Program-made: the position numbers and the translations under genes
The notes under the pieces: generated by a model
What the model was told of the DNA's origin: nothing
Database searches by the model: none
Seen by the model: the letters and a program-made list of their open reading frames with translations, nothing else
Assembly (NCBI GenBank): GCA_001873945.1
Contig: MNYI01000174.1
Span: forward strand, 1-47,684
Reading direction: 5' to 3'
Origin: Candidatus Desantisbacteria bacterium CG2_30_40_21
GTDB lineage: Bacteria > UBA9089 > CG2-30-40-21
DNA: 47,684 nt
Part shown: positions 1 through 10,616 of the stretch, one piece after another
How positions within the stretch are numbered: position 1 is the first letter of the stretch
Layout: each line of letters starts with the position of its first letter

Positions 1-60
1 AACATCCATTCTTCTTCCGGAATAGCAAGATATTTACCCCAATCATCTATGCCCTTAATT

Positions 61-218
61 ATACTCAAGTGGGGCATAAATTGCGTTTTTCGCTGGTCTT
101 AATCAACGATAGCTGTGTTGTTCAGGTTCGCAATAGTACACTATTGCTCACCTTCACGCCTTGCTCTCCTTGATTAATCCTCACCGAAAAAATCGCAATT
201 TATGCCCCACTTGAGTAT
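61..218. mobile_element. MITE-like non-coding palindromic element, family A, copy 1
   Basis: 25-nt terminal inverted repeats ATACTCAAGTGGGGCATAAATTGCG / CGCAATTTATGCCCCACTTGAGTAT. The whole ~158-bp body recurs in opposite orientation at 27199-27428. No ORF. Confidence 0.75.
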
Positions 219-357: not shown

Positions 358-498
358 ATGAATAACATCACTTTTGTTTTTGATGGACTCTCTGCTGTTT
401 TTCTGAGTTTTATAATTATCGCAGTCACTGGTTGGGCTATTTTGTATTATCAAGAGCGTCGTCAACAGGCTCATAATCTAAGTAAATTCACTCTGTAA
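358..498 (+). CDS. small hypothetical membrane protein (46 aa)
   Basis: ATG at 358 preceded by AAGGAGGA (345-352). One hydrophobic helix LSAVFLSFIIIAVTGWAILYY. No recognisable family. The ORF-track start at 304 is TTG without an RBS. Confidence 0.4.
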   Translation: MNNITFVFDGLSAVFLSFIIIAVTGWAILYYQERRQQAHNLSKFTL

Positions 499-2064
499 TG
501 TGTCAGTATCTGCATAACTCATCACCCTTTCCAGCAAACCCAGCCGCAAATGTGTCTGGTTTTCAAACCTGCCAACCAATGCTTCGCCCTCTTTATCCAG
601 ATCATAGCAAGTGCTGTTTTCTATATCAATTAATACCCCGGGAACCCCTGCATTCCGGAAGATCCCCTGCCTTTTGGCAAAGAATGCCTTGCAACAACAG
701 CCGATGTATGAGCTAACCCCATCTGTTCGGCACTCTTGAAGTGTTGTCCTCAGGTGTTCATAATTCTGTATGGTAATGGGTCTAAGCCCTCGTTGCTCTG
801 CCAGTTCATACGCCTTGCCAATACTGCATCCACCACACCTACTGCACCCCTCTTGATACCGATATTCACACCCCACCAGCTTGGCACAATATGGCAAGAG
901 TAAAACCGATGGTTGTTTCAAGATATCACGGATAGAGCCATTCACGGTGAACAGGTAGTTTGCTTCTTCTAATGGAATGCCCAGAGACGGATATTCCATT
1001 CGTTGCAAAGCAGAAGAAACACAAGCAACAAAATCAGCACCTTGTAGCCCTGACATCTGAGGCTGATTATGCTCGAAAAACCATTCAATTTTTTGTATAA
1101 CCTCAATAATTGGAATATCCTTCAGGATTGCCTCAAGGTCAAATATCGTACGAGACGGCGAAACAAAGAAATCACCGGTAATCAATGCTTGTTTGAGTGC
1201 CATGCGTTTAGTATCTACCACTAAGGATGCCCGAATCAATCCTCCCTTAGCCTTATTTGTTGCCCTCAGGGTCTGCCTGATATCATGGGGTTCTCGCGTT
1301 TCTTCAATCCATTCCCTGGATGCAAATTCAGGACTTCTGTAGTCAAGCACTTGCTGGAGTTTTTCAGGAAGCTCCATCCTCTCAAACCTTATCCCCAGTA
1401 CCTCCTCAAACCCAGCCTGCAATGCCTGTTTGATTATATCCAATGATGGTACAAATCCCAGTTCTTCCTGCAAGCAAGTAACCCGCTGTCTTGCTGAGGC
1501 AAGTTCCTTATCTGCCAATTTCTCTGTCGGGATTCGTAAGGCACGAATCATGGATTCCACATCAAAGTTAACCAATAATGTCCCCTGAAACAATACTGCA
1601 TTATCCTCAAAAATCCCACCTGTGCCGGATATTTTACGGCCGTTGACCTCAATATCGTTACGGGGTCGAAAATTTGCATTAACACCCAATGTCTTCAATC
1701 CTCTGATAACTGCCTCACAGACCAGTTCTGTCACCTTATCCAATCGATAACCAATGTCAGCCTTTGACGCAATCAATTCCCAGCCAAGTTGCGAAGAATC
1801 AAAATATATGGCACCACCGCCGGTAATTCGTCGATTAATATCAATACCCTGTTTGCGGCAAAACTCAAGCCGCACCTCTTGCTCCACAGTCTGATGGTAC
1901 CCTATAAGTACAGCCGACGGTGAGAATTGCATAAATCTGACGGTATTAGGAATGTCACCTTTAGCCCGTGCCTCAAGCAGGATTGAGTCAAGGGTAATAT
2001 TTTCTGCTGCTGTAAGTATGCCTGTATCAAGCAGTTGCCATCTCACCATGGATGTAATCACCAC
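478..2064 (-). CDS. lipoate-protein ligase (LplA catalytic + C-terminal accessory domain) fused to a C-terminal Cys-rich DUF116-like domain
   Basis: N-terminal BPL/LplA/LipB-type sequence with the NGRKISGTGG lysine motif. LplA C-terminal-domain-like segment GGLIRASLVV..ITGDFF. Last ~145 aa carry LLLPYC..C..CSRCGGCSIG..IGCCC, matching my recollection of Pfam DUF116. GTG at 2064; alternative ATG at 2049 behind GGTGGTGA. Confidence 0.8.
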   Translation of the reverse strand: MVITSMVRWQLLDTGILTAAENITLDSILLEARAKGDIPNTVRFMQFSPSAVLIGYHQTVEQEVRLEFCRKQGIDINRRITGGGAIYFDSSQLGWELIASKADIGYRLDKVTELVCEAVIRGLKTLGVNANFRPRNDIEVNGRKISGTGGIFEDNAVLFQGTLLVNFDVESMIRALRIPTEKLADKELASARQRVTCLQEELGFVPSLDIIKQALQAGFEEVLGIRFERMELPEKLQQVLDYRSPEFASREWIEETREPHDIRQTLRATNKAKGGLIRASLVVDTKRMALKQALITGDFFVSPSRTIFDLEAILKDIPIIEVIQKIEWFFEHNQPQMSGLQGADFVACVSSALQRMEYPSLGIPLEEANYLFTVNGSIRDILKQPSVLLLPYCAKLVGCEYRYQEGCSRCGGCSIGKAYELAEQRGLRPITIQNYEHLRTTLQECRTDGVSSYIGCCCKAFFAKRQGIFRNAGVPGVLIDIENSTCYDLDKEGEALVGRFENQTHLRLGLLERVMSYADTDTLQSEFT

Positions 2065-3019
2065 CTATTAATGCACAACACACCTCACTAAACCGCACCT
2101 CAAGCCCCATCTCCTTAGCCATCCCCACAATTCCCTCTGCTGGATAAGCAATACCGTTTAATCCTGCCTTAAGTGCCAGTGTGTCTGTCTTGAATTTATG
2201 TTCGCCCATGGGACGCATACATCCTAACAAAACTGGTGTGAAAGGGAATACCTGTCGGGCGTGCTTAAACACCTCACCCATTTCCGCAGGATCTGGTGGA
2301 ATAACATCAGCCATCGCTGTTCCGATTTGTGGCAATAGACCCACCAGAACAACAGCCGTTACCGGGTACTTAGCAATAATCTCAAGTGCCTGATATTCTC
2401 CCAGAATCTTCCTGTAATGCAACCCAATAACCACATGGGGAATGGTGTGTATTCCATATTCGCACAAGAGTTTGAGTGAATTTTCAAAATCGTTTGTGGT
2501 CACATCCTTCAGATGATAAACCTGCCTGAGGGTTTCATTAGAACCAACAATATCCATCATTGCCCCATCAATTGCCGCAGAATCCCTTATCTCCTGCACG
2601 GTTTCTTCATCCAAAATGCCTAAGTGAGCAACAATTTTGAAGCCAAATTCTTGCTTTATTCGGGCAATGGTGTTCAAGAATGGCTTGATGGGTACTACAC
2701 CCCTTTTATCTGACCCACCACTGATGAGCATCCCTTTTGCCCCATGCCTATTAATTTCTTGAGCGTAATTAAACAATGCTTGTGGCGAGATGGTAGGCTT
2801 CATGGCAGCAAGTATCTTGCGACCGCAGTGGTCACAATTCAATTCACAGCCTGCCCCGGTAATAGACACAGGCATAAAATAACAATGCCCGCAACTTTGA
2901 CAAAATTCCTCAGTTTCATAATGCTTTATCGTTGGGGCAAAGAAAGAGATGCTGTTGCCAAAATTCTGTCGAGCTATGTTCCAACATTTTTCCTCAGTTA
3001 ATTCCTGATCCATTACCAT
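2027..3019 (-). CDS. radical SAM protein, LipS1/LipS2-like (archaeal-type lipoyl synthase component)
   Basis: CELNCDHC (CX3CX2C) radical SAM motif preceded by a second cluster-like motif CQSCGHC. Lies between the lipoate ligase and the DsrC/LbpA genes. Radical SAM assignment is firm; LipS assignment rests on context. Confidence 0.65.
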   Translation of the reverse strand: MVMDQELTEEKCWNIARQNFGNSISFFAPTIKHYETEEFCQSCGHCYFMPVSITGAGCELNCDHCGRKILAAMKPTISPQALFNYAQEINRHGAKGMLISGGSDKRGVVPIKPFLNTIARIKQEFGFKIVAHLGILDEETVQEIRDSAAIDGAMMDIVGSNETLRQVYHLKDVTTNDFENSLKLLCEYGIHTIPHVVIGLHYRKILGEYQALEIIAKYPVTAVVLVGLLPQIGTAMADVIPPDPAEMGEVFKHARQVFPFTPVLLGCMRPMGEHKFKTDTLALKAGLNGIAYPAEGIVGMAKEMGLEVRFSEVCCALIGGDYIHGEMATA

Positions 3020-3397
3020 AGGTGTTACTCCATAAATTCAAGCCAATAAGCACGCCTCCACAACCACCGCAGGGAAAAGATGCAGAAATCCCGGCGATCT
3101 TAAATGCCTGATTATACTGCCCCTGAGGAAAAAGCTCGTGAAAATACCACGCATTACCCTTTTCTTCACCCAACATTTTTTCATCTCCCTGACGATTATC
3201 TTCATCTGGGGTGGATAGCCGTATTCTTGATAATAATTGCGAATGATGCCAATAATATTCCAATGCTCAAGCGTAAGTGTAATTCCGCAACCATTTGCCA
3301 GATATTCAGCTATGCCCTTATTCCACTGGTTCGGGTCTTGCAGAAAGCCGTCTGCATCTGTTTCGTAAGGTTGGCTATTAAGTTCAAAAACCGGCAT
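2994..3397 (-). pseudogene. DsrC/TusE-family protein, reading frame broken in an A6 run (T6 at 3176-3181 on + strand); atypical C-terminus
   Basis: ORF 3038-3397 gives the N-terminal two thirds (DADGFLQDPNQWNKGIAEYLA..LTLEHWNIIGIIRNYYQEYGYPP). ORF 2994-3263 gives the collinear C-terminal part (LGEEKGNAWYFHELFPQGQYNQAFKIAGISASFPCGGCGG). The frames join at ..REMKK|MLGEEKG.. if one A is added or by a -1 shift. Confidence 0.8.
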
Positions 3398-3410: not shown

Positions 3411-3989
3411 TCAATTGATACTTTTCCTGTAAATCAGCTCCACACCATCGATATGATAATCATTGTGCCACACATCATAACATGAATGGCAGGTAAATAT
3501 TACCTGTTTTGCCTTTAGCCGTTGTATCTCTCCTGAATTATGTTGCTTGCAAACTTCAAATTCCTCATCCAGTCCAAGCCCTTTCAAGACCCTTCCGCAA
3601 CACCATTCCCTGTCTCCAAGCACAGCAAAATCAACCCCATCACGAGACAATTCCTTAACTATGTCCAATGCCGTTTGTTGCGAGGGAATAAGAAACGATT
3701 GTTTGCAGCCCACAAAATAAACTACGGCAGCCCTTTCTTTTTGAGCATATTGGGTAAACCCATTACCCTCCAGCCTTAGCCACAATCCCCTTTCTTCATT
3801 GGGATAACCAAACAGGTTATGGTGTTGATTAGTGATTAGCTTAGCAGTTTCTACCACCTGCGGGTCATGACCATGAGCAGCGACAGCATCTGCAAGACCT
3901 GTCCATTTTCCGTGAACGCCGGAACATACTCCCTTATCACAAAACATACGCTCTTGTAGTCTTCGTTGCAGGATAATTTCTTGCAACAT
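3411..3989 (-). CDS. single-CCG-domain protein, paralogue of the C-terminal half of the 686-aa HdrD-like protein
   Basis: AAVVYFVGC..EWCCG..FTCHSCY forms one complete CCG motif. Collinear with residues around AAVVYFVGCMTSF..EWCCGFP..FNCASCY of ORF 4614-6674. Start overlaps the lbpA stop (TAATG). Confidence 0.75.
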   Translation of the reverse strand: MLQEIILQRRLQERMFCDKGVCSGVHGKWTGLADAVAAHGHDPQVVETAKLITNQHHNLFGYPNEERGLWLRLEGNGFTQYAQKERAAVVYFVGCKQSFLIPSQQTALDIVKELSRDGVDFAVLGDREWCCGRVLKGLGLDEEFEVCKQHNSGEIQRLKAKQVIFTCHSCYDVWHNDYHIDGVELIYRKSIN

Positions 3990-4453
3990 TACTCCTTCTC
4001 CTTCTCCGCAAACAACCCTTCTGCCTCATATTTTTTATAATCTGCCTCAAGCCATGCTGACACCTCTTCCTCACCATGCTTGAGATCAATTATATCTTTC
4101 TGCAAATTACTTGCCTCAATCAGTATCAACCAGCCTGTTCCATAGGAATCAGTATTGATCAGACTTGGGCTGCTCAAGACATCCTGATTGACCTCAAGGA
4201 TAGTGCCATGGACAGGGGATTTCACTGGACCGATATACTTTCCTGCTTCGATCGTACCCAATGCACGACCCTTAGTTACTGTTCCACCAGCGGGCTTAAT
4301 CTTAACATAAGCCACTGTGCCGGCTGCCTTCTGACCAAACTGGTCAATACCACACCGAACCCTGTTTCCTTCCTCAATCCTCAGCCAGACATGATTATCT
4401 GAATTAAAATAATACAAATCACCCGGCATCTCAACATCCTTGTACTTTGCCAT
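3989..4453 (-). CDS. lbpA: GcvH-like lipoate-binding protein (LbpA-type)
   Basis: Glycine-cleavage H-protein fold signature: HVWLRIEEG..CGIDQFGQ..LGTIEAGKYIGPVKSPVHGTILEVN..DSYGTGWL, with the lysine in the lipoylation position. Strong RBS AAGGAGG. No gcvT/gcvP nearby. Confidence 0.85.
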   Translation of the reverse strand: MAKYKDVEMPGDLYYFNSDNHVWLRIEEGNRVRCGIDQFGQKAAGTVAYVKIKPAGGTVTKGRALGTIEAGKYIGPVKSPVHGTILEVNQDVLSSPSLINTDSYGTGWLILIEASNLQKDIIDLKHGEEEVSAWLEADYKKYEAEGLFAEKEKE

Positions 4454-4471
4454 TACTACCTCCTTGTAAAA

Positions 4472-4620
4472 CTAAAAGTGAAAAGTGAAAAACGAAAAGT
4501 GAAAAACGAAAAGTGAAAAGTGAAAAACGAAGTTAAAATCACTTTCCCCTTTTCACTTATTAAAAAATAATTTATGTTTTTACCTTCACTTTTCGTTTTT
4601 CACTTTTCACTTTTCACTTC
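4472..4620. repeat. long imperfect inverted repeat built from tandem heptamers (AAAGTGA / AAAACGA), intercistronic between the HdrD-like gene and lbpA
   Basis: About 8 tandem 7-mers at 4474-4529. The reverse-complement arm CTTCACTTTTCGTTTTTCACTTTTCACTTTTCACTTC lies at 4584-4620. The TGA stop of ORF 4614-6674 lies inside the first unit. Confidence 0.8.
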
Positions 4621-6674
4621 TTCTCCATCCCAGCCGCAAGCACCAACTCAGCCATATCCATAACCTTCACTTTTGAGCCTTTGGCTTTAATAGCATTCTG
4701 AATCATCCGTTTACACTGACCACAAGCTGTGGTAACAATATCTACATGGGACTCATCAAACTCTTCCACCAGACTTCCGGCAATCTTATTGACCAAATCT
4801 GCATTGACCATCTCCAGATCTCCACCACCACCACAGCAGGTGCTAAGCCTTCTATTCAAGGGCAATTCCACATATTCTACCCCCGGGATAGATTTAATGG
4901 CTTTTCTTGGTGGCTCGAATACACCACAGCCCCGTCCCAGATCGCATGGGTCATGATAGGCAACCCTTCCTTTTATTCCACCCAAATTAACCCTTTTGTC
5001 AGCAATCAGCCTATGGATATATTCAACATTGTGAAGGAATTCTACCCCTGGCAAATACTCTTGATACTCATGCTTAAAGGTATGGTAGCAGGAGGCACAA
5101 TTGAAGACAACCTGTTTTGCCTGCATCATCTTTATCACTTCCACATTCTTGTCCCTCAGCCACTGCCATTCCTGAGAAAGCCCCGCTACAATAAGTGGAA
5201 ATCCGCAGCACCATTCATCCTCACCCAAAATGGCAAAATCCTCCCCTGCCTGATACAACAGGTTCAGGTTTGCCTCTGCCACCCCGGAGATAGCCGGGGA
5301 AAATGAGGTCATACACCCAACAAAATAGACAACGGCTGCCTTTTTCTTGTCTGAATAAACCTCAGGGGGCACATCTGAAAACTCAGCCCACATCAATCGG
5401 TCAGCATTGGGATAATTAAGAACATTATGCACCTTCTTTGCTGCACCAAGGGCAATGTTTACTGCATTTGGGGCAATTTTTTCCCTAACTGCATACTCCC
5501 GCATGGAAACCCGCAGGCTTCTGGTATTAATATTTATCGGGCAGACCTCTTTGCACCTGCCGCATAGGGTACAGGTATAAACTTGAGTCGCAAACCAGTC
5601 TTGCGATTCCTTAGTGTGGGGTTCTCTATCTATGAGCGAGCTAAAAAAGCCATACCCCTGCCTCAACCTTTCACTAATTAACGAGATTACCCCGCCTGAA
5701 ACTGCATGTTCTTCTTTAGTATGTTTATAAGCCACACAATGTTCTGCACATATCCCACATTTGATACAGGCATCTATCTCTATTAACTGCCGTTTGGAGA
5801 AGGGGATCTCATCTGCCTGCTTGCTGAAGATATGTTGTTCTGGCGATAATGAATTAACCACCATGGCAATGGGTGCAGTTACAATATGCCACAGCTTGCG
5901 ATTAAACGGAATGGTACCAACCAGAGTACCCAGGAATATACCGGAAAGACACCAGCTTATGATATAAAAATCAGGCCAGTGAAGACCCAACGGGGCAATT
6001 ATTTTAGATAAGACAAAAGCCACAAACCAATAACTGGCAATACTATCCGGCACATTAAAACTCAAAATACTTGTTGCCTCAGCCAGAAACCGTAGAGCAA
6101 ACCAGCCACCAAGGATAATCACGGCAAAGATGTCTGCCTCTTTCATCTTAAACACATACGCCCGTTTGATAAAGCGACGATAAATAAGTATGCCCTCACC
6201 AACTACTAAGATAAGGAAACCAAAGCCATCATTCAGCAAGGCATACAACGCCTGCTGATGGGTAAATGTAGCCTCTGAGACTGTTCGGAAAAAGTAAAAA
6301 TCACAAAATGGGGAATAAAGGAAACGGGTAAGATGAGAAATGCTTTGTAGCTCTGGCATGGAGGAAGCCTTGACATGATTAACCACGATGATGCCGATAT
6401 AACTGACAATGATAGAAACCATGGCCACACCCCGCAGGATGTTTTCCTTAAATAGTCGGCGATGGATAAAGGAATCAAGGATAGCACCAAAGAAATGAAA
6501 GAGCCTTGGGCTAAATATGGCCACAATAATGCTCGTACCAGTGCTGATTATACCCCTACCCATGCCCTTTGTCCAGATATAGAGGTTGTTCAGCAGCCCC
6601 AGGGCAAAAACAAATAGCCCAATCATAAAGGCAGCCGCACAAAATGAATCAAATAATGGATATTGACCTAACAT
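4614..6674 (-). CDS. membrane-anchored HdrD/DsrK-like iron-sulfur oxidoreductase (polytopic membrane domain + 2x[4Fe-4S] ferredoxin motifs + two CCG domains)
   Basis: First ~270 aa contain at least 6 hydrophobic segments. Then CIKCGICAEHC and CTLCGRCKEVCP, followed by VGC..WCCG..NCASC and HDPC..TCCGGGG..TACGQC. RBS GAGGAGA. Confidence 0.8.
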   Translation of the reverse strand: MLGQYPLFDSFCAAAFMIGLFVFALGLLNNLYIWTKGMGRGIISTGTSIIVAIFSPRLFHFFGAILDSFIHRRLFKENILRGVAMVSIIVSYIGIIVVNHVKASSMPELQSISHLTRFLYSPFCDFYFFRTVSEATFTHQQALYALLNDGFGFLILVVGEGILIYRRFIKRAYVFKMKEADIFAVIILGGWFALRFLAEATSILSFNVPDSIASYWFVAFVLSKIIAPLGLHWPDFYIISWCLSGIFLGTLVGTIPFNRKLWHIVTAPIAMVVNSLSPEQHIFSKQADEIPFSKRQLIEIDACIKCGICAEHCVAYKHTKEEHAVSGGVISLISERLRQGYGFFSSLIDREPHTKESQDWFATQVYTCTLCGRCKEVCPININTRSLRVSMREYAVREKIAPNAVNIALGAAKKVHNVLNYPNADRLMWAEFSDVPPEVYSDKKKAAVVYFVGCMTSFSPAISGVAEANLNLLYQAGEDFAILGEDEWCCGFPLIVAGLSQEWQWLRDKNVEVIKMMQAKQVVFNCASCYHTFKHEYQEYLPGVEFLHNVEYIHRLIADKRVNLGGIKGRVAYHDPCDLGRGCGVFEPPRKAIKSIPGVEYVELPLNRRLSTCCGGGGDLEMVNADLVNKIAGSLVEEFDESHVDIVTTACGQCKRMIQNAIKAKGSKVKVMDMAELVLAAGMEKK

Positions 6675-6695
6675 TAGTTTCTCTCCTCATATAAG

Positions 6696-6800
6696 ATGTG
6701 TAAAATACTAATGATTTTTATGATTTAAGTGATTTGGAATGATTAAAAAATAATCATCATAATTACTAAAATCATTCCCAATCATTAGTAACTTACACAT
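6696..6800. repeat. 105-bp near-perfect palindromic element in the tusA / HdrD-like intercistronic gap
   Basis: ATGTGTAAAATACTAATGATT (6696-) pairs with AATCATTAGTAACTTACACAT (-6800). Inner arms are TGATTTGGAATGATT / AATCATTCCCAATCA. Confidence 0.75.
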
Positions 6801-6865
6801 TAAAAAAGCACCCAATTATCCTCGTTGAACACTTCCTGTCTTCTTTGTGTCCTTTGTGGTTCAAT

Positions 6866-7114
6866 TTACGGTTTCATCACGAACACTTCCCAATATCCCT
6901 TATCCTCCAGCCTGACCGACTCCATTTGCAGCCCATTCTTTTCACAAAAGGCTGGAATCTCCTTGGTCACAGACGGTTCAGAATCGCACAATATCTTAAT
7001 CACATTACCAGAGATTAACCCCTTGGTAGCCTTTTTGGTCATAACCAATGGATATGGACATACCCTGCCCAAAACATCAATCTCCTTGACTGGTTCAATC
7101 GTCTTTATATCCAT
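6866..7114 (-). CDS. tusA: TusA/SirA-family sulfur carrier
   Basis: 82 aa with the VLGRVCPYPLV active-site Cys-Pro-x-Pro context. Confidence 0.85.
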   Translation of the reverse strand: MDIKTIEPVKEIDVLGRVCPYPLVMTKKATKGLISGNVIKILCDSEPSVTKEIPAFCEKNGLQMESVRLEDKGYWEVFVMKP

Positions 7115-7151
7115 CTTCTTCTCCTTCTTTTTAATCTGCGTAATCTGCGAA

Positions 7152-7553
7152 TCAAAACCACATCATCTGATCGCATCTTTCCATCTCTTTTTGCACCTCA
7201 TTAAACCCTACCACATTCAAATCAATATCAGCCCCCATATCCCTTGCATTAATCAACCGTTCAGGCTTTATGTCTAAACGGTATAAGTCCTCCTTGCAAA
7301 CCAGCATCCTCATATCAGAAGCCAATTGATTCTTGATATGCTGCTCCGTACTGATAATGCCATAAAATTCCTGTGACCTTTGGTTTTTAATACAATTCAA
7401 TACCCCATCACCCACAAAGGCAACAACCGGCTCAACCTCTTCATCAATATGCATATCAGCCACAAAACAAGCCATGGCATGGGTGATGGCAAGCTTTGGG
7501 TTTTCACTTTTGTATGGAGGTCTTGAGATTACAAACAAAATACTCTTTGCCAT
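7152..7553 (-). CDS. DsrE/DsrF-family protein (DsrF/TusC-like)
   Basis: MAKSILFVISRPPY.. DsrE-fold N-terminus and ..LVCKEDLYRL.. segment. Start moved to the ATG at 7553 behind AAGGAGAA; the longer ORF-track start reads through a hairpin. Confidence 0.7.
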   Translation of the reverse strand: MAKSILFVISRPPYKSENPKLAITHAMACFVADMHIDEEVEPVVAFVGDGVLNCIKNQRSQEFYGIISTEQHIKNQLASDMRMLVCKEDLYRLDIKPERLINARDMGADIDLNVVGFNEVQKEMERCDQMMWF

Positions 7554-7580
7554 ATTATTTTCTCCTTCCTTATCGTTCGC

Positions 7581-7601
7581 GGACAGGGACAAGCCCTGTC
7601 C
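7581..7601 (-). other. intercistronic stem-loop (8-bp GC-rich stem)
   Basis: GGACAGGG acaag CCCTGTCC, immediately after the stop of ORF 7602-7961 and before the RBS of the next gene. Confidence 0.6.
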
Positions 7602-7961
7602 CTACTCTCCCCCTATATGCAATACTCTATCACTTTTAGCTGCCCGTGCCACATACCAATCCATGCTATGGACAGCAATCCCTTCTATTACATCATCTTT
7701 ATGAATTCCCCGAGCCGCAGCACATGCCTCACATGCAACAATTGCTACACCATTTTCTTGTAAAGCCTTCAGCCTCTCTGCCAGATAGGAGTAATCCTTA
7801 AACGACTTTTGTCCCTTTCTGGCTAAAGTAACAGCATTGCCAGAAAACCACAGGTTTACGCTATGCCCTTTATTTACCGCTGTTTCTGCCAGCTTAACGG
7901 CAAAATCAGAATTCATCGAACCAATAAGGGAAGAAAAAAGACCAATGCTTATCGTTGCCAT
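7602..7961 (-). CDS. DsrE/TusD-like sulfurtransferase subunit (Cys-bearing)
   Basis: 119 aa with IVACEACAAARGI, corresponding to the DsrE/TusD active-site cysteine region. Confidence 0.8.
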   Translation of the reverse strand: MATISIGLFSSLIGSMNSDFAVKLAETAVNKGHSVNLWFSGNAVTLARKGQKSFKDYSYLAERLKALQENGVAIVACEACAAARGIHKDDVIEGIAVHSMDWYVARAAKSDRVLHIGGE

Positions 7962-7976
7962 TTTTTTTAGTTAGAA

Positions 7977-8127
7977 GTCAAGAAAAAATAAGTTGTACAC
8001 CAAGAGTCACTGAGTCGTTTGGCTGGCAAAGCGTGAGAAGCGAGCATACTACTGTATGTAAGCGACGAACAACGGAGCCAGCCAAGATGAATCGGTGGCA
8101 CGACTGTATAAGTTATTTTTTCTTGAC
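7977..8127. mobile_element. MITE-like element, family B, copy 1 (intercistronic)
   Basis: TIRs GTCAAGAAAAAATAAGTTGTACA / TGTATAAGTTATTTTTTCTTGAC. Second copy at 36474-36600 shares both ends and the core CTGTATGTAAGCGACGAACAAC..GCCAGCCAAGATG.ATCGGTGGCACGACT. Confidence 0.8.
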
Positions 8128-8137
8128 GACTTACCTC

Positions 8138-8437
8138 CTATAACCAGATTAACTTCTCATAATCATTCATCATCAAATCCACGACATCCTCATAAGTAAC
8201 GACATTTACCCTACTATCTATTTCAGAAGTAGTAAATCCCCTTGTTTGAATATCGGAGGCTAAGGCATAATAATTTACGCCTTTTTTTTGCAACACCCCT
8301 GAATCCCTGCCATTTTCATGGATTACTGCATGATACACACCATTTTCAACGAAAAATATACCAAGCCCTTCACCGTTCAATCTCTCCAGCATACTATCAT
8401 TTTTCTGACAATCACTAACAAATACCCCCAGCCTCAT
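8138..8437 (-). CDS. DsrH/TusB-like protein
   Basis: 99 aa with GIFFVENGVYHAV.. and ..YYALASDIQTRGF.., typical of DsrH/TusB. Confidence 0.7.
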   Translation of the reverse strand: MRLGVFVSDCQKNDSMLERLNGEGLGIFFVENGVYHAVIHENGRDSGVLQKKGVNYYALASDIQTRGFTTSEIDSRVNVVTYEDVVDLMMNDYEKLIWL

Positions 8438-8438
8438 C

Positions 8439-8687
8439 CTACTCCTCCTTTTTGATCAAGAGTCGAAAGGTAGCGTCAGAGTTTTCAATAACCTCAACAG
8501 GATACTTCTTCTTCTGGCAAAAATTAGGAATAGATTCAGTAGCCGCTGGCTTGTAATCAGTTATAACCTCAAGAACCTGACCTGTTTCTATCCCCTTCAA
8601 GGCATCCCTTACCTCCATCACCGTATAAGGACAAATCTTGCCCGTGATGTCTACCACACTATCTATCTTACAACCTGCTAATCCCAT
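8439..8687 (-). CDS. tusA: TusA/SirA-family sulfur carrier
   Basis: 82 aa with DITGKICPYTVMEVRDALK. Confidence 0.85.
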   Translation of the reverse strand: MGLAGCKIDSVVDITGKICPYTVMEVRDALKGIETGQVLEVITDYKPAATESIPNFCQKKKYPVEVIENSDATFRLLIKKEE

Positions 8688-8748
8688 TTATTTTTTACCT
8701 CCATTAAGAAACAGGGGCAGACACAGGAGGCTGCCCATTACCTGCAAT

Positions 8749-8899
8749 GTAACCGTTCACAACTAATAATATTTTAACACAGAGTTTGCAGAGACGACAG
8801 AGGGACACAGAGCTTAAATTCCAATCATCATACGATCTGAGCCGATTGTCCTCTTTCTCTGTGTCCTCTGTGTCAAAAATATAGACTGTGAACGGTTAC
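8749..8899. mobile_element. MITE-like element, family D (intercistronic)
   Basis: TIRs GTAACCGTTCACA / TGTGAACGGTTAC. Internal CACAGAG-type repeats. A half copy lies at 29033-29100. Confidence 0.75.
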
Positions 8900-8906
8900 C
8901 CTACAA

Positions 8907-9164
8907 TCAAGCGAGATTTACCACCTTATTTCCCACAATCAAATCAACTAACTGTGGATAGCCAATGCTCTCAGCCTTTCCAGCCAATCTATCCTTTAAT
9001 CCTCTTGCATGGACATCATCCTCCATGGCATAAACCTTACCATGCATGGTAGAGGGATTAAGATAGACGCCATCCTTAATAAGTACAACCTTTGCATCAC
9101 TATCCATTGCTGATACTGAGGCTGCAATCTCACCATTTGGCTTATCAACTAAATAAAGAGCCAT
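8907..9164 (-). CDS. DsrH/TusB-like protein
   Basis: 85 aa with VVLIKDGVYL.. and ..VYAMEDDVHARGL.. Confidence 0.7.
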   Translation of the reverse strand: MALYLVDKPNGEIAASVSAMDSDAKVVLIKDGVYLNPSTMHGKVYAMEDDVHARGLKDRLAGKAESIGYPQLVDLIVGNKVVNLA

Positions 9165-9177
9165 ATCTGTTCACCTC

Positions 9178-9528
9178 CTACCAATCGAGAATAAATTCAG
9201 CATCACTGTATAATTTATCAGAGTCTGCCCTTGGAATAATACTCATATCCATAGCTATTTCATCCTGAGATACCCCTCTTGCATCTAAGTCTTCCTTGAC
9301 CACGAAGTATTTTACCCCTGCCTTCTTGAGTGTACCCTCATAACCAAGGTTTTCTGCCCTGTCCGCACCCTTCAAGGCATAGTAAACCCCATCACCCTGT
9401 AAGAGCAAGGTTACCTCATGTTCATCAATCCCAGCGGTTGCTCCAACAGCCGCACGCCATCCTTCGGTATAGAAGACATTACCATATGGCGTTCTATTAA
9501 ATTGATAAAGCAATTTTCTTGTTGCCAT
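9178..9528 (-). CDS. DsrF/TusC-like protein
   Basis: 116 aa with LLLQGDGVYYAL.. and ..YFVVKEDLDARGV.., and no active-site Cys, as in TusC/DsrF. Confidence 0.75.
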   Translation of the reverse strand: MATRKLLYQFNRTPYGNVFYTEGWRAAVGATAGIDEHEVTLLLQGDGVYYALKGADRAENLGYEGTLKKAGVKYFVVKEDLDARGVSQDEIAMDMSIIPRADSDKLYSDAEFILDW

Positions 9529-9556
9529 TAATCCTTCACCTCCTTTTCCTTCTCTA

Positions 9557-9916
9557 TTACAGCGTTACCAGCGTATCGCACTCGCCCATAATGTCCGCAA
9601 AGTCCGGCAATCCACCAACCTTGACACCCTCAATAAATTCCTTGCCACCTTCCAGACCTCGTCCATTGACGCAAATACCACAACAGATGATTTTAGCTCC
9701 CTTTTCCACCACCTTCTTTATTCCTGAGACAGGTAGATTTTCCTCTGTTGTTCCAGGAAACTTCTGGTGTTTGATGGGGTTATAGACGCCATCAAGGTAA
9801 AAGAACGCCTGTACCTCATGCCCTTTGTCCAATGCAGCATCAGCTATTTTGGTAAATACCTTGTAGTTTTCCGTCTGCCATGGACCTTCAGTCAGCAACA
9901 TCCCTATTTTTGCCAT
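9557..9916 (-). CDS. DsrE/TusD-like sulfurtransferase subunit (Cys-bearing)
   Basis: 119 aa with KIICCGICVNGRGL active-site region. Confidence 0.8.
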   Translation of the reverse strand: MAKIGMLLTEGPWQTENYKVFTKIADAALDKGHEVQAFFYLDGVYNPIKHQKFPGTTEENLPVSGIKKVVEKGAKIICCGICVNGRGLEGGKEFIEGVKVGGLPDFADIMGECDTLVTL

Positions 9917-9937
9917 ACGATTTCACCTCCTTTTTTC

Positions 9938-10285
9938 TTAAAATCCTATAACCACATCCGCATTCCTGATAATCTGATTGATTTCAGCTCGTGGTCTTGT
10001 AATTATAGCAGAATTATCAACCTTGATCCCCCGATCAATCAATGCCTCTTCCTCAGCCATTAACTCCGCCTCCATCATCAACAAGGTTTCTACATGCTTA
10101 TCAAGCTCCTGATTTTTGGCTGCCTGACAATCCAGAGAGGCTGCGGTCCAGACCCCATCATTTATAAAAAGCACCTGAACCTTATTTTCGTCCTCAATAG
10201 TTAATCCCACAGCACACCTTAATGCTTCAGCATTGCCAATGGTATTAAAGGGCAATGCGTAAATAACAACAGCTATCTTTTTCAT
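9938..10285 (-). CDS. DsrF/TusC-like protein
   Basis: MKKIAVVIYALPF.. DsrE-fold protein without the active-site Cys context. ATG at 10285 lies 1 nt after the upstream stop, with GGAGGG inside the upstream gene end. Confidence 0.65.
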   Translation of the reverse strand: MKKIAVVIYALPFNTIGNAEALRCAVGLTIEDENKVQVLFINDGVWTAASLDCQAAKNQELDKHVETLLMMEAELMAEEEALIDRGIKVDNSAIITRPRAEINQIIRNADVVIGF

Positions 10286-10286
10286 C

Positions 10287-10616
10287 CTACCCTCCAAAGC
10301 TCAAAAATCTATCGCTTTCATTAACCATAACTGCTAACTCATACTGACCAGCATATTTTACCCCAGTCAGGCAATCATCCTCTTCAACCCCGCGTTCCTC
10401 AGCAGTATGTCCGCAAATGGCAAGAAATGCACCCGCATCCCTTAACCCTGCAAACCGGGAAGAAATCTTATTCTTTGCTACCACATTGTAAACCCCATCA
10501 TCCATCATAAACAGGCTTACCTCATGCCCAGCTCCCAGAGCAGCCGTAGCCAGATTAATGACTGTCCCGGCATTCTGGTTCTCTGGACTGGTGGTTAATA
10601 ATATTCCCATTTTCAT
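10287..10616 (-). CDS. DsrE-like sulfurtransferase (Cys-bearing)
   Basis: 109 aa with MKMGILLTTSP.. and ..FLAICGHTAEERGV.. Confidence 0.75.
   Translation of the reverse strand: MKMGILLTTSPENQNAGTVINLATAALGAGHEVSLFMMDDGVYNVVAKNKISSRFAGLRDAGAFLAICGHTAEERGVEEDDCLTGVKYAGQYELAVMVNESDRFLSFGG

Follow-up and report, generated by a model that had tools for sequence, protein, structure and literature searches.

The window, the whole 47,684-nt stretch of Candidatus Desantisbacteria DNA analysed here, encodes a predicted lipoate-protein ligase of the archaeal Lpl(AB) type whose C-terminus is fused to a DUF116 domain. Around this fusion, a core of LipS1, LipS2, Lpl(AB)-DUF116 and LipT is conserved. We tentatively propose, with somewhat less than even confidence, that the DUF116 domain is an Fe-S relay between the flavoprotein LipT and the radical-SAM proteins LipS1/LipS2 in Lpl(AB)-based lipoate assembly.

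The features of the gene and its neighbours are collected in Table 1. A database protein of 523 residues (P0001) is 100% identical to the window protein, and the ATG at position 2049, which gives a protein of that length, is therefore a likelier start than the GTG. The first-pass annotation of this DNA had described a ligase with a DUF116 domain at its C-terminus. All the motifs that it quoted (NGRKISGTGG, ITGDFF, VLLLPYCAKLVGCEYRYQEGCSRCGGCSIG, YIGCCCKAFF and STCYDL) were found in the translation of the reading frame, and an hmmscan-type check placed PF01976 at the C-terminus, well above the gathering cut-off. The match covers positions 34-143 of the 155 in the profile. The C-terminal extension of the ligase corresponds to nt 481-912 (aa 385-528). 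In a Pfam scan of the window protein, PF21948, PF01976 and PF03099 were identified and no further families.

Table 1. Positions of the Lpl(AB)-DUF116 gene, its domains and cysteine motifs, and neighbouring lipoate genes in the window
Feature	Residues	Position (nt)	Strand	Basis or remark
Whole Lpl(AB)-DUF116 gene including stop codon		478..2064	(-)	GTG at 2064 gives 528 aa
Lipoate-protein ligase catalytic domain	19-219	1408..2010	(-)	PF21948, E 2.4e-49
LplB-type accessory domain (predicted)	271-353	1006..1254	(-)	NF053749, match below cut-off
DUF116 structural domain	369-518	511..960	(-)	PF01976 match and AF2 model
Pfam PF01976 match	379-488	601..930	(-)	E 1.6e-10, 41.1 bits (gathering cut-off 25)
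First cysteine block	C393-x5-C399-x7-C407-x2-C410-x2-C413	826..888	(-)	beta1-alpha1 loop; contains CxxCxxC
Cysteine triplet at end of beta3	C456-C457-C458	691..699	(-)	alignment of 89 sequences and AF2 secondary structure
Cysteine of invariant T-C-Y motif after beta4	C486	607..609	(-)	sequence alignment
LipS1 radical-SAM lipoyl synthase subunit		2027..3019	(-)	NF053742, 243.1 bits (cut-off 230)
GcvH-like lipoate-binding protein (LbpA-type)		3989..4453	(-)	PF01597, E 1.8e-29

Concerning the ligase half, PF21948, PDB profile searches and Foldseek all identified an LplA/LipB-type catalytic domain. The model of the window protein matched Thermoplasma acidophilum LplA (3R07_A) with a TM of 0.86, Foldseek alignments to full-length LplA structures extended to about 340-370 columns, and the PDB profile search retrieved 2ARS/3R07_A with E about 1e-26. 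Residues R78, R79, T81, G82-84, K144, S146, G147 and G149 were invariant (n=58 sequences). By comparison with E. coli LplA, we take RRxTGGG (R78, R79, T81, G82-84) and GxKISGTG (K144) to be the lipoyl-AMP/nucleotide-binding and catalytic-lysine motifs. ATP-dependent activation requires an LplB accessory domain. The LplB profile NF053749 matched aa 271-353 with an E of 1.6e-11 and 44 bits (cut-off 65), the LplB chain 3R07_C was retrieved with an E of 2.8e-4 in the PDB profile search, and the AF2 fold was confident across this stretch. The DUF116-fused ligases form a separate clade among Lpl(AB) ligases. The window gene is best explained as encoding a specialised ligase of the archaeal-type Lpl(AB) lineage, with predicted activity towards lipoate or octanoate.

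The primary structure of the DUF116 domain is marked by its cysteines. C393, C399, C407, C410, C413, C457, C458 and C486 were invariant in 89 of 89 sequences, whereas C456 was variable (Cys in 50 and Ser in 35 of the 89). The domain was modelled by AF2 with a pLDDT of 92 and a pTM of 0.87 as a four-strand beta-alpha-beta, Rossmann/flavodoxin-like fold, in which each of the eight invariant cysteines either follows beta1, beta3 or beta4 or immediately precedes alpha1. Flavodoxin-like folds bind cofactors at such post-strand positions. The cysteines by themselves suggest putative Fe-S binding, and eight Cys ligands are the number expected for two [4Fe-4S] clusters. The model of the whole protein reached a pTM of only 0.54, and thus no defined docking geometry is predicted.

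Structural comparison of the DUF116 model gave generic folds. Against the PDB, the best Foldseek match had an E of 6e-3 and the highest TMq among the matches listed was 0.44; the matches, none with an E below 6e-3, were alpha/beta folds and included type II dehydroquinase, receiver domains and the Argonaute MID domain. A PDB profile search with the domain found nothing better than E 0.7, and Foldseek against viral models gave no informative match. No likeness to ferredoxin, flavodoxin or a solved Fe-S protein was detectable with Foldseek and the PDB profile search.

The fusion is widespread. All of the best database relatives (n=120) have both Pfam domains, and matches to query residues about 5-516 came from 80 loci in genomes of different GTDB species. 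The carriers, which span 12 or more phyla across Bacteria and Archaea, are nearly all metagenome-assembled genomes; nearly all of these lineages are generally regarded as anaerobic. Homologues of 511-586 aa (typically about 520 aa) aligned end to end with 50-76% identity. Because the frame is continuous and homologues align over their full length, no frameshift or missed stop lies behind the fusion. The genuine covalent fusion claimed at first pass thus stands, and two of the grounds named there for giving it up, confinement to one assembly and a missed frameshift or stop, fall away, since the relatives and GTDB loci share the architecture. With the DUF116 domain as query, phmmer against 1.84 billion representatives retrieved only 193 clusters. 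Among the matches listed, the domain lies at about residue 370 in proteins about 480-570 aa long, and of the shorter matches checked, two were cut or frameshifted pieces of fused genes. One candidate for a standalone close relative of the domain, P0126 (locus L088), proved to be a frameshifted fragment of a fused gene. No further DUF116-like ORFs were found in loci L001-L087.

In the window, the stop of LipS1 overlaps the start of the fusion gene, and the LbpA-type gene lies upstream, in agreement with the earlier placement of the fusion inside a lipoate/sulfur cluster. The LbpA/GcvH-like protein is the probable substrate of the fused ligase. The cluster is of the Hdr-like sulfur type and rich in genes for CCG, DsrE, TusA and DsrC-like proteins; an apparent homopolymer frameshift is present in the DsrC-like gene. 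Of LipS1, LipS2 and LipT, only LipS1 is encoded within the window, LipT and LipS2 not being found there. A 32-nt inverted repeat lies towards position 1, and LipT-LipS2 may follow beyond it on the contig. In close relatives (67-71% identity), the same cluster is present and is followed by LipT-LipS2. In one of these, L092, the LipT start overlaps the fusion stop and NifS/NifU are encoded about 5 kb downstream.

At most of the 85 loci counted, the fusion has LipT, LipS1 and LipS2 as flanking genes. LipT was present at 65 of 71 loci and lay directly downstream on the same strand, or was fused, at 57 of the 71; six Thermoplasmata/Methanobacteriota-type loci were without an adjacent same-strand LipT. 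Of the 39 loci where the flanks reached 5 kb or more on each side, 34 encoded both LipS1 and LipS2, and 23 had a GcvH-like gene within 10 kb. DsrE or TusA occurred in only nine of the 39, most fusion loci being without sulfur-relay genes. Three proteins (L052, L056 and P0141) consist of Lpl(AB), DUF116 and LipT in a single chain (at 10001-12682 in L052), with PF01976 above the cut-off there too, and in two others (P0231 and P0234) a CdhB-like portion, a further nucleotide/flavin-type module, stands C-terminal to DUF116. Unbiased clustering of neighbouring proteins of at least 70 aa revealed no other widely conserved partner, such as ferredoxin, flavodoxin or Nfu/IscU. The possibility that DUF116 replaces LipS2 or LipT was rejected, as both usually co-occur with the fusion. 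The Rosetta-stone link between DUF116 and lipoate assembly, put forward at first pass for the domain in general, is strong for this subfamily with its LipT, LipS1 and LipS2 flanks; it probably does not hold for the DUF116 family at large, the contexts of classical members being different (PMC5898192).

The association of DUF116 with LipT, by gene order and by covalent fusion, points to electron transfer. In the reaction sequence that we propose, the ligase half would attach an octanoyl group to a lysine of the neighbouring LbpA/GcvH-like protein. The DUF116 domain would take electrons from the FAD of LipT, in the manner of a ferredoxin or flavodoxin, and hand them singly to the [4Fe-4S] radical-SAM clusters in LipS2 and LipS1. 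These enzymes would then place sulfur at C8 and C6 on the newly attached octanoyl-lysine. LipT and DUF116 would together be the counterpart of E. coli flavodoxin reductase and flavodoxin, and would be tethered to the ligase, which holds the substrate protein. The protein matured in the window would most likely be the LbpA/GcvH-like protein of the DsrE/TusA/Hdr-like sulfur cluster. A wider proposal, which we regard as conceivable but rather doubtful, is that DUF116 constitutes an unrecognised class of Fe-S electron carrier with a flavodoxin-like fold and a GGR-flavoprotein partner and, in the fusion, supplies the missing reductant of LipS1/LipS2 (or regenerates their auxiliary clusters) in anaerobes.

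The enzymology of LipS1/S2 is consistent with a need of either kind. LipS1/S2 require a reductant and lack a known physiological partner (Neti et al. 2022, PMC9585515). The auxiliary clusters serve as the sulfur source, and as only 1-1.5 turnovers were obtained with a physiological reductant, a regeneration factor is missing (PMC9585515). DUF116 may thus be an Fe-S cluster or sulfur carrier that rebuilds the sacrificed auxiliary [4Fe-4S] clusters of LipS1/LipS2, as NfuA/IscU do for LipA, and makes the synthases catalytic. The richness of the domain in invariant cysteines, its position as the sole extra conserved module of the core and the NifS/NifU genes near the fusion in L092 are in line with such a role. 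On the other hand, Pfam gave no match to Nfu, NifU/IscU or A-type families, the tightly coupled and covalently fused partner is a flavoprotein, which a carrier does not obviously need, and the classical DUF116 contexts are unrelated to enzymes with sacrificial clusters (PMC5898192). We consider this role unlikely, and the supply of Fe-S clusters to the lipoate-building enzymes less likely than that of electrons. The sulfur-donor module suggested at first pass is likewise disfavoured by the context, which ties the domain to LipT.

Eight invariant cysteines are also the number needed for two Zn(Cys)4 sites. DUF116 might then be a structural domain that serves to dock the ligase, with LipT/LipS1/LipS2 or LbpA as partner, and takes no part in redox or donor chemistry. 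Its sole PDB sequence matches, which were insignificant (E about 1), were zinc-ribbon ribosomal proteins, and the pTM of the whole-protein model suggests flexible tethering. However, the cysteines occupy post-strand and pre-alpha1 sites of an alpha/beta fold rather than a ribbon or knuckle, the motif is CxxCxxC and not paired CxxC knuckles, and the anaerobic lifestyle of the carriers fits an oxygen-labile cluster. A zinc domain therefore seems to us quite improbable.

We see very little prospect for a CCG/HdrB-like thiol/disulfide or persulfide module that would act on the lipoyl dithiolane or on sulfane sulfur delivered by DsrE/TusA. It would suit the CCG, DsrE, TusA and DsrC-like genes of the window, and a cysteine after beta1 with a CC pair after beta3 loosely recalls CCG domains. 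Nevertheless, when the DUF116 profile was compared with a CCG profile from the same loci, hhalign gave a probability of 0.04-0.8%, and homology to CCG/HdrB was ruled out at this value of below 1%. There was no Pfam CCG (PF02754) match, HdrB was absent among the Foldseek matches listed, and DsrE or TusA accompany the fusion at a minority of loci. Finally, an assembly or annotation artefact, in which two genes were joined by a frameshift or lost stop, can be dismissed with near certainty: the apparent frameshift in the DsrC-like gene indicates that sequence errors are possible in the window, but the single continuous ORF, the end-to-end alignments, the GTDB loci and over 200 independent homologues that share this length and architecture, drawn from many assemblies and sequencing projects, refute it, and the apparently standalone P0126 is itself a piece of a fused gene.

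The electron relay, if it holds, bears on an old orphan family of archaea and bacteria. For PF01976/COG1852, the only functional comment that we found is a computational suggestion of electron transfer from 2015 (PMC5898192), and none of the literature found on DUF116/PF01976/COG1852/IPR002829 ties the domain to lipoate. The LipS1/LipS2 pathway has two gaps, the in vivo reductant of the radical-SAM clusters and the rebuilding of the sacrificed auxiliary clusters. A DUF116 domain on the ligase, and sometimes also on LipT, conserved across both domains of life, is a testable candidate for one of them, and the fused domain is a soluble, naturally tagged version suited to expression and spectroscopy. 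HMM surveys that trim ligases to the catalytic core can overlook a fifth conserved component of the pathway. If true, a partnership between DUF116 and GGR flavoproteins might also explain polyprenyl-synthetase fusions and neighbourhoods in isoprenoid contexts (PMC5898192; bioRxiv 10.1101/2025.11.21.689855).

Classical DUF116 proteins (arCOG02078) have been predicted to be flavodoxin-fold, metal-binding electron-transfer proteins (Makarova et al. 2015, PMC5898192). They possess two N-terminal transmembrane helices and at least six conserved cysteines including CxxCxxC, and are found with sulfite-reductase-like genes, ArsA-like ATPases or in a polyprenyl-synthetase fusion (PMC5898192). The window domain resembles DUF116/arCOG02078/COG1852 in its Pfam score above the cut-off and its eight invariant cysteines, which include the CxxCxxC motif (C407-x2-C410-x2-C413) together with further conserved ones; a flavodoxin-like fold, predicted for both, may be a further common trait. 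Unlike classical members, it has a soluble ligase in place of the membrane anchor, and the two N-terminal transmembrane helices are absent. As a soluble Lpl(AB) makes up the N-terminus and the match to the Pfam profile begins at position 34, we regard it as a DUF116 member at the domain level with a different architecture. It represents a divergent subfamily, to the extent that single-sequence phmmer gives no connection to standalone members.

Among systems known for lipoate, the bifunctional LplA-LipA fusion (NF053790) offers a precedent for a covalent link between the ligase and an enzyme that acts further along in lipoate assembly. NF053790 matches the ligase half of the window protein with an E of 2e-34, yet with a score of 119 against a cut-off of 800, and what follows the ligase here is not a radical-SAM lipoyl synthase. 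In the LipA system, NfuA/IscU regenerate the auxiliary cluster. LipS1/S2 use up their auxiliary clusters (PMC9585515), so that the same need exists here; unlike NfuA/IscU, the DUF116 domain has no Pfam match to a carrier family and a flavoprotein dominates its context.

The closest parallel is the sLpl(AB)-LipS1/LipS2-LipT pathway. An archaeal-type Lpl(AB), LipS1, LipS2, the GGR-family flavoprotein LipT and an LbpA/GcvH-like acceptor are common to both, often in one operon beside sulfur-relay genes. Tanabe et al. (2023, PMC10332631) suggested that LipT supplies LipS1/S2 with electrons. The proteobacterial systems use a plain sLpl(AB) of about 350 aa with no C-terminal domain (PMC10332631), whereas the ligase described here carries an additional DUF116 domain of about 150 aa with eight cysteines. 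As the plain enzyme suffices there, DUF116 is not universally required. In a term search, that study (PMC10332631) contained neither a mention of such a ligase fusion nor the term DUF116, and no description of an Lpl(AB)-DUF116 fusion was found in the searchable literature.

The proposed electron relay itself would have a known counterpart in function. The domain shares no sequence or fold membership with flavodoxin, and would use a Cys-ligated metal instead of FMN and work while tethered to the ligase. In E. coli, NADPH-flavodoxin reductase and flavodoxin, or ferredoxin, reduce radical-SAM enzymes. LipT and DUF116 may follow the same logic, a flavoprotein passing electrons to a small alpha/beta one-electron carrier.

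The fused gene is a single uninterrupted reading frame that encodes 528 aa when read from its GTG codon. A database protein identical to its product (P0001) is 523 aa long, and the ATG at 2049 is therefore the likelier start, with the choice still ambiguous. The first-pass annotation had described a lipoate-protein ligase with a DUF116-like extension (window 481-912, aa 385-528), and all the motifs that it quoted were found in this ORF. Residues 1 to ~350 matched lipoate-protein ligases in sequence and fold searches of the PDB, the top matches being the bipartite LplA/LplB of Thermoplasma acidophilum (2ARS, 3R07), and residues past ~350 had no PDB coverage in either search. The ligase half belongs to the archaeal-type Lpl(AB)/sLpl(AB) lineage. 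A Pfam scan bore out the DUF116 call, and the appended half is a PF01976 member at the domain level. The stop codon (2027) of LipS1, which with LipS2 forms the radical-SAM lipoyl synthase pair, overlaps the fusion start by 38 nt with the GTG at 2064 or 23 nt with the ATG, an arrangement that suggests translational coupling.

Positions of features in the fusion protein (aa), the window and related loci (nt)
Feature	Position	Details
Lpl(AB)-DUF116 fusion gene	window 478-2064 (-)	
PF21948 LplA-B_cat	aa 19-219	Pfam, E 2.4e-49
LplB-type accessory module	aa 271-353	NCBIfam
PF01976 DUF116	aa 379-488	Pfam, E 1.6e-10, 41.1 bits, gathering cut-off 25
C393	directly past beta1	AlphaFold2 model
C399 to C413	long loop into alpha1	AlphaFold2 model
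CCC triplet	end of beta3	AlphaFold2 model
C486	past beta4	AlphaFold2 model
LipS1	window, directly before fusion (-)	NF053742, 243 bits, cut-off 230
DsrC/TusE-like gene	window 2994-3397 (-)	frame switch ~3175-3184
Sulfur cluster around LbpA/GcvH-like gene	window 3411-10616 (-)	
Inverted repeat, 32 nt	window 59-90 / 189-220	97% complementary, 98-nt spacer
Plain Lpl(AB)	L001 7448-8437	
Plain Lpl(AB)	L004 3656-4612	
Plain Lpl(AB)	L074 12703-13800	
Triple fusion	L052 10001-12682	Sumerlaeota
Triple fusion	L056 9974-12694	'Bacterium BMS3Abin01'
P0231	L089 4965-8318	1117 aa; two LplA-like catalytic-domain matches, DUF116, PF02552
P0234	L090 8001-10013	670 aa; Lpl(AB)-DUF116-CdhB-like
Rubredoxin gene	L006 12640-12804	opposite strand to LipT
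NifS-like (Aminotran_5) and NifU_N	L092 13027-14671	~5 kb downstream of fusion, past sulfite-reductase-like gene

Concerning the DUF116 half, eight cysteines (C393, C399, C407, C410, C413, C457, C458 and C486) were invariant in 89 of 89 sequences, with Cys or Ser at position 456, giving the spacing C-x5-C-x7-CxxCxxC-x43-(C)CC-x27-C. An AlphaFold2 model of the domain based on a 58-sequence alignment (pLDDT 92, pTM 0.87) predicts a beta-alpha-beta Rossmann/flavodoxin-like domain. Because the customary cofactor site in such folds is the C-terminal edge of the sheet, the cysteines probably converge on a single site. The whole-protein model had a pLDDT of 90.5 but a pTM of 0.54, indicating that DUF116 is well folded and that the model does not fix where it sits against the ligase. 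Foldseek against the PDB returned weak generic alpha/beta matches (best E 6e-3; top TMq 0.44 among the matches listed), and a PDB profile search with DUF116 gave nothing below E 0.7. Kinship to the CCG domains abundant in the window cluster was rejected (hhalign probability < 1%).

We then turn to the neighbours of the fusion in 85 non-redundant loci screened with phmmer seeds (L001-L087 minus two duplicates). LipT, a FAD protein of the geranylgeranyl-reductase family, followed immediately on the same strand or was fused in 57 of the 71 loci whose downstream flank is 1.2 kb or longer, and was present anywhere at the locus in 65. In the subset of 39 loci flanked by 5 kb or more on each side, one or both LipS genes were found in 38, and the LipS1-LipS2 pair in 34. 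The counts for other genes in this subset were 23 for a GcvH-like gene, 22 for Hdr-like CCG proteins and only nine for DsrE or TusA. All-against-all clustering of neighbouring ORFs of at least 70 aa revealed no further widely conserved partner, and no conserved ferredoxin, flavodoxin or Fe-S carrier. LipS1, LipS2, Lpl(AB)-DUF116 and LipT make up the conserved core. A plain second Lpl(AB) adjoins the fused ligase in 13 loci, with the order plain Lpl(AB), GcvH, LipS2-like gene and fused ligase shared by the Thermoplasmata/Methanobacteriota loci, which raises the question whether the two ligases divide the labour. A Promethearchaeota MAG carries a rubredoxin gene directly past LipT, another small redox protein at a fusion locus.

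Three independent single chains join Lpl(AB), DUF116 and LipT in that order (L052, L056 and the database protein P0141). In two further proteins, P0231 and P0234, a PF02552 (CdhB-like) module is added past DUF116; the CODH epsilon subunit has a Rossmann-type nucleotide/flavin-binding fold. The source MAG of P0231 (GCA_041643055.1) also encodes an ordinary fusion (L007), and downstream of the P0231 gene come LipT and another radical-SAM gene, presumably LipS2. The P0234 gene sits outside any lipoate cluster. Taking the LipT gene order and these fusions together, DUF116 has thus been repeatedly wired to the ligase on one side and to a flavin-type redox module on the other.

In the known pathway, sLpl(AB) loads octanoate or lipoate onto the GcvH-like lipoate-binding protein LbpA, sulfur is inserted by LipS2 at C8 and then by LipS1 at C6, and LipT is the proposed electron supplier (PMC10332631). 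LipS1 and LipS2 each carry a radical-SAM cluster that needs reduction and an auxiliary [4Fe-4S] cluster consumed as sulfur source, and with a physiological ferredoxin system achieve only 1-1.5 turnovers (PMC9585515). The pathway is therefore without a known reductant or cluster-regeneration factor. We tentatively propose, at slightly less than even chances, that DUF116 is a putative Fe-S domain relaying electrons from the FAD of LipT to the radical-SAM clusters. Its eight cysteines would bind the Fe-S cluster or clusters, single electrons would pass from LipT-FAD to the radical-SAM clusters, and the tether to the ligase would keep DUF116 near the substrate protein. Such a relay fits the coupling and fusions with LipT and the lack of another conserved carrier in the clusters, and a 2015 prediction for arCOG02078 is in line with it (PMC5898192). 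The first-pass annotation had also suggested a sulfur-donor module. That DUF116 donates sulfur or clusters to the auxiliary clusters seems unlikely, and gene context speaks for electron transfer rather than donation of sulfur; the NifS-like and NifU_N genes near the fusion in L092 bear on this alternative, as a single occurrence. A structural zinc domain is somewhat less likely again, and a thiol/disulfide module would be quite improbable.

That the fusion is an artefact has virtually no probability, since in a search of 5.8 billion proteins all 120 of the best 120 matches carried PF21948 and PF01976 (501-586 aa, 51-100% identity, 94-99% query coverage), and scanning GTDB at one genome per species gave 80 loci encoding the full-length fusion, aligned to query residues ~5-516. 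The hosts, MAGs almost throughout, are bacteria (Actinomycetota, Chloroflexota, Thermodesulfobacteriota, Nitrospirota, Bacillota, Sumerlaeota, Caldisericia, WOR-3 and Nitrospinota) and archaea (Asgard Thor-, Prometh- and Sif-archaea, Thermoplasmata, Bathyarchaeia, Methanobacteriota, Thermoproteota and Nitrososphaeria). Confinement of the fusion to these lineages, commonly considered anaerobic, also fits the electron relay. Neighbour-joining on the ligase part placed the 86 fused ligases in one clade and the 13 plain Lpl(AB) paralogues from the same loci outside it. The family is conserved and looks ancient. A domain-only phmmer search with the DUF116 of the fusion against 1.84 billion 50%-identity representatives matched just 193 clusters; among the matches listed, those of ~480-570 aa have DUF116 at about residue 370. 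Two shorter matches were a fusion cut at its N-terminus (P0121) and a frameshifted fragment of a fused gene adjoining a split LipT (P0126). The DUF116 of the fusion is therefore a distinct subfamily, which appears from these sequences to be almost always fused, P0121 and P0126 being the shorter matches checked.

In the window, the genes on the minus strand run from DsrE-like genes and two TusA genes through a 686-aa protein, LbpA, a small CCG protein and a DsrC-like gene to LipS1 and the fusion. The sulfur cluster contains several DsrE/DsrH-like genes, and its 686-aa protein combines membrane, 2x[4Fe-4S] and 2xCCG parts in one chain (DsrMK/HdrED-like). No HdrA-like protein was found among the scanned window ORFs of at least 100 aa, a set that left out four of 131-238 aa, and the cluster may be an LbpA system separate from the sHdr types described so far. 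The loci of two close relatives (71% and 67% identity), L092 and L094, show synteny with it; there, LipT and LipS2 come next, directly in L092, where the LipT start overlaps the fusion stop, and ~200 nt downstream in L094. No LipT start was present in the 477 nt past the fusion stop of the window, so LipT and LipS2 either lie beyond the window or were displaced. This non-coding stretch, where close relatives have LipT-LipS2, holds an inverted repeat, perhaps a MITE-like element or the scar of a rearrangement. The DsrC/TusE-like gene has an apparent frameshift at an A6 run, with its N-terminal two thirds in one frame and the canonical C-terminal part (MLGEEKGNAWYFHELFPQGQYNQAFKIAGI...) in another; one added A would give a normal DsrC, which leaves a sequencing error or a pseudogene as the explanation.

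The observation of the fusion is solid. We found no description of the fused ligase-DUF116 module in the searchable literature, where neither of the two papers naming DUF116 ties it to lipoate; a term search of the 2023 pathway paper (PMC10332631) found no ligase-DUF116 fusion. Database entries for these proteins read 'DUF116 domain-containing protein' or 'lipoate-protein ligase A', so the architecture has been recorded, not interpreted. The pathway itself is already known. The Rosetta-stone link to lipoate assembly drawn in the first-pass annotation holds for the fused subfamily, but not as a statement on all DUF116 proteins. The fusion gives an orphan domain a functional hypothesis that is clear and testable, and that addresses an open question in lipoyl-cofactor enzymology. 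Classical DUF116 proteins have a two-helix membrane anchor, whereas the DUF116 of the fusion is without it, and the proposed relay would work like flavodoxin with flavodoxin reductase.
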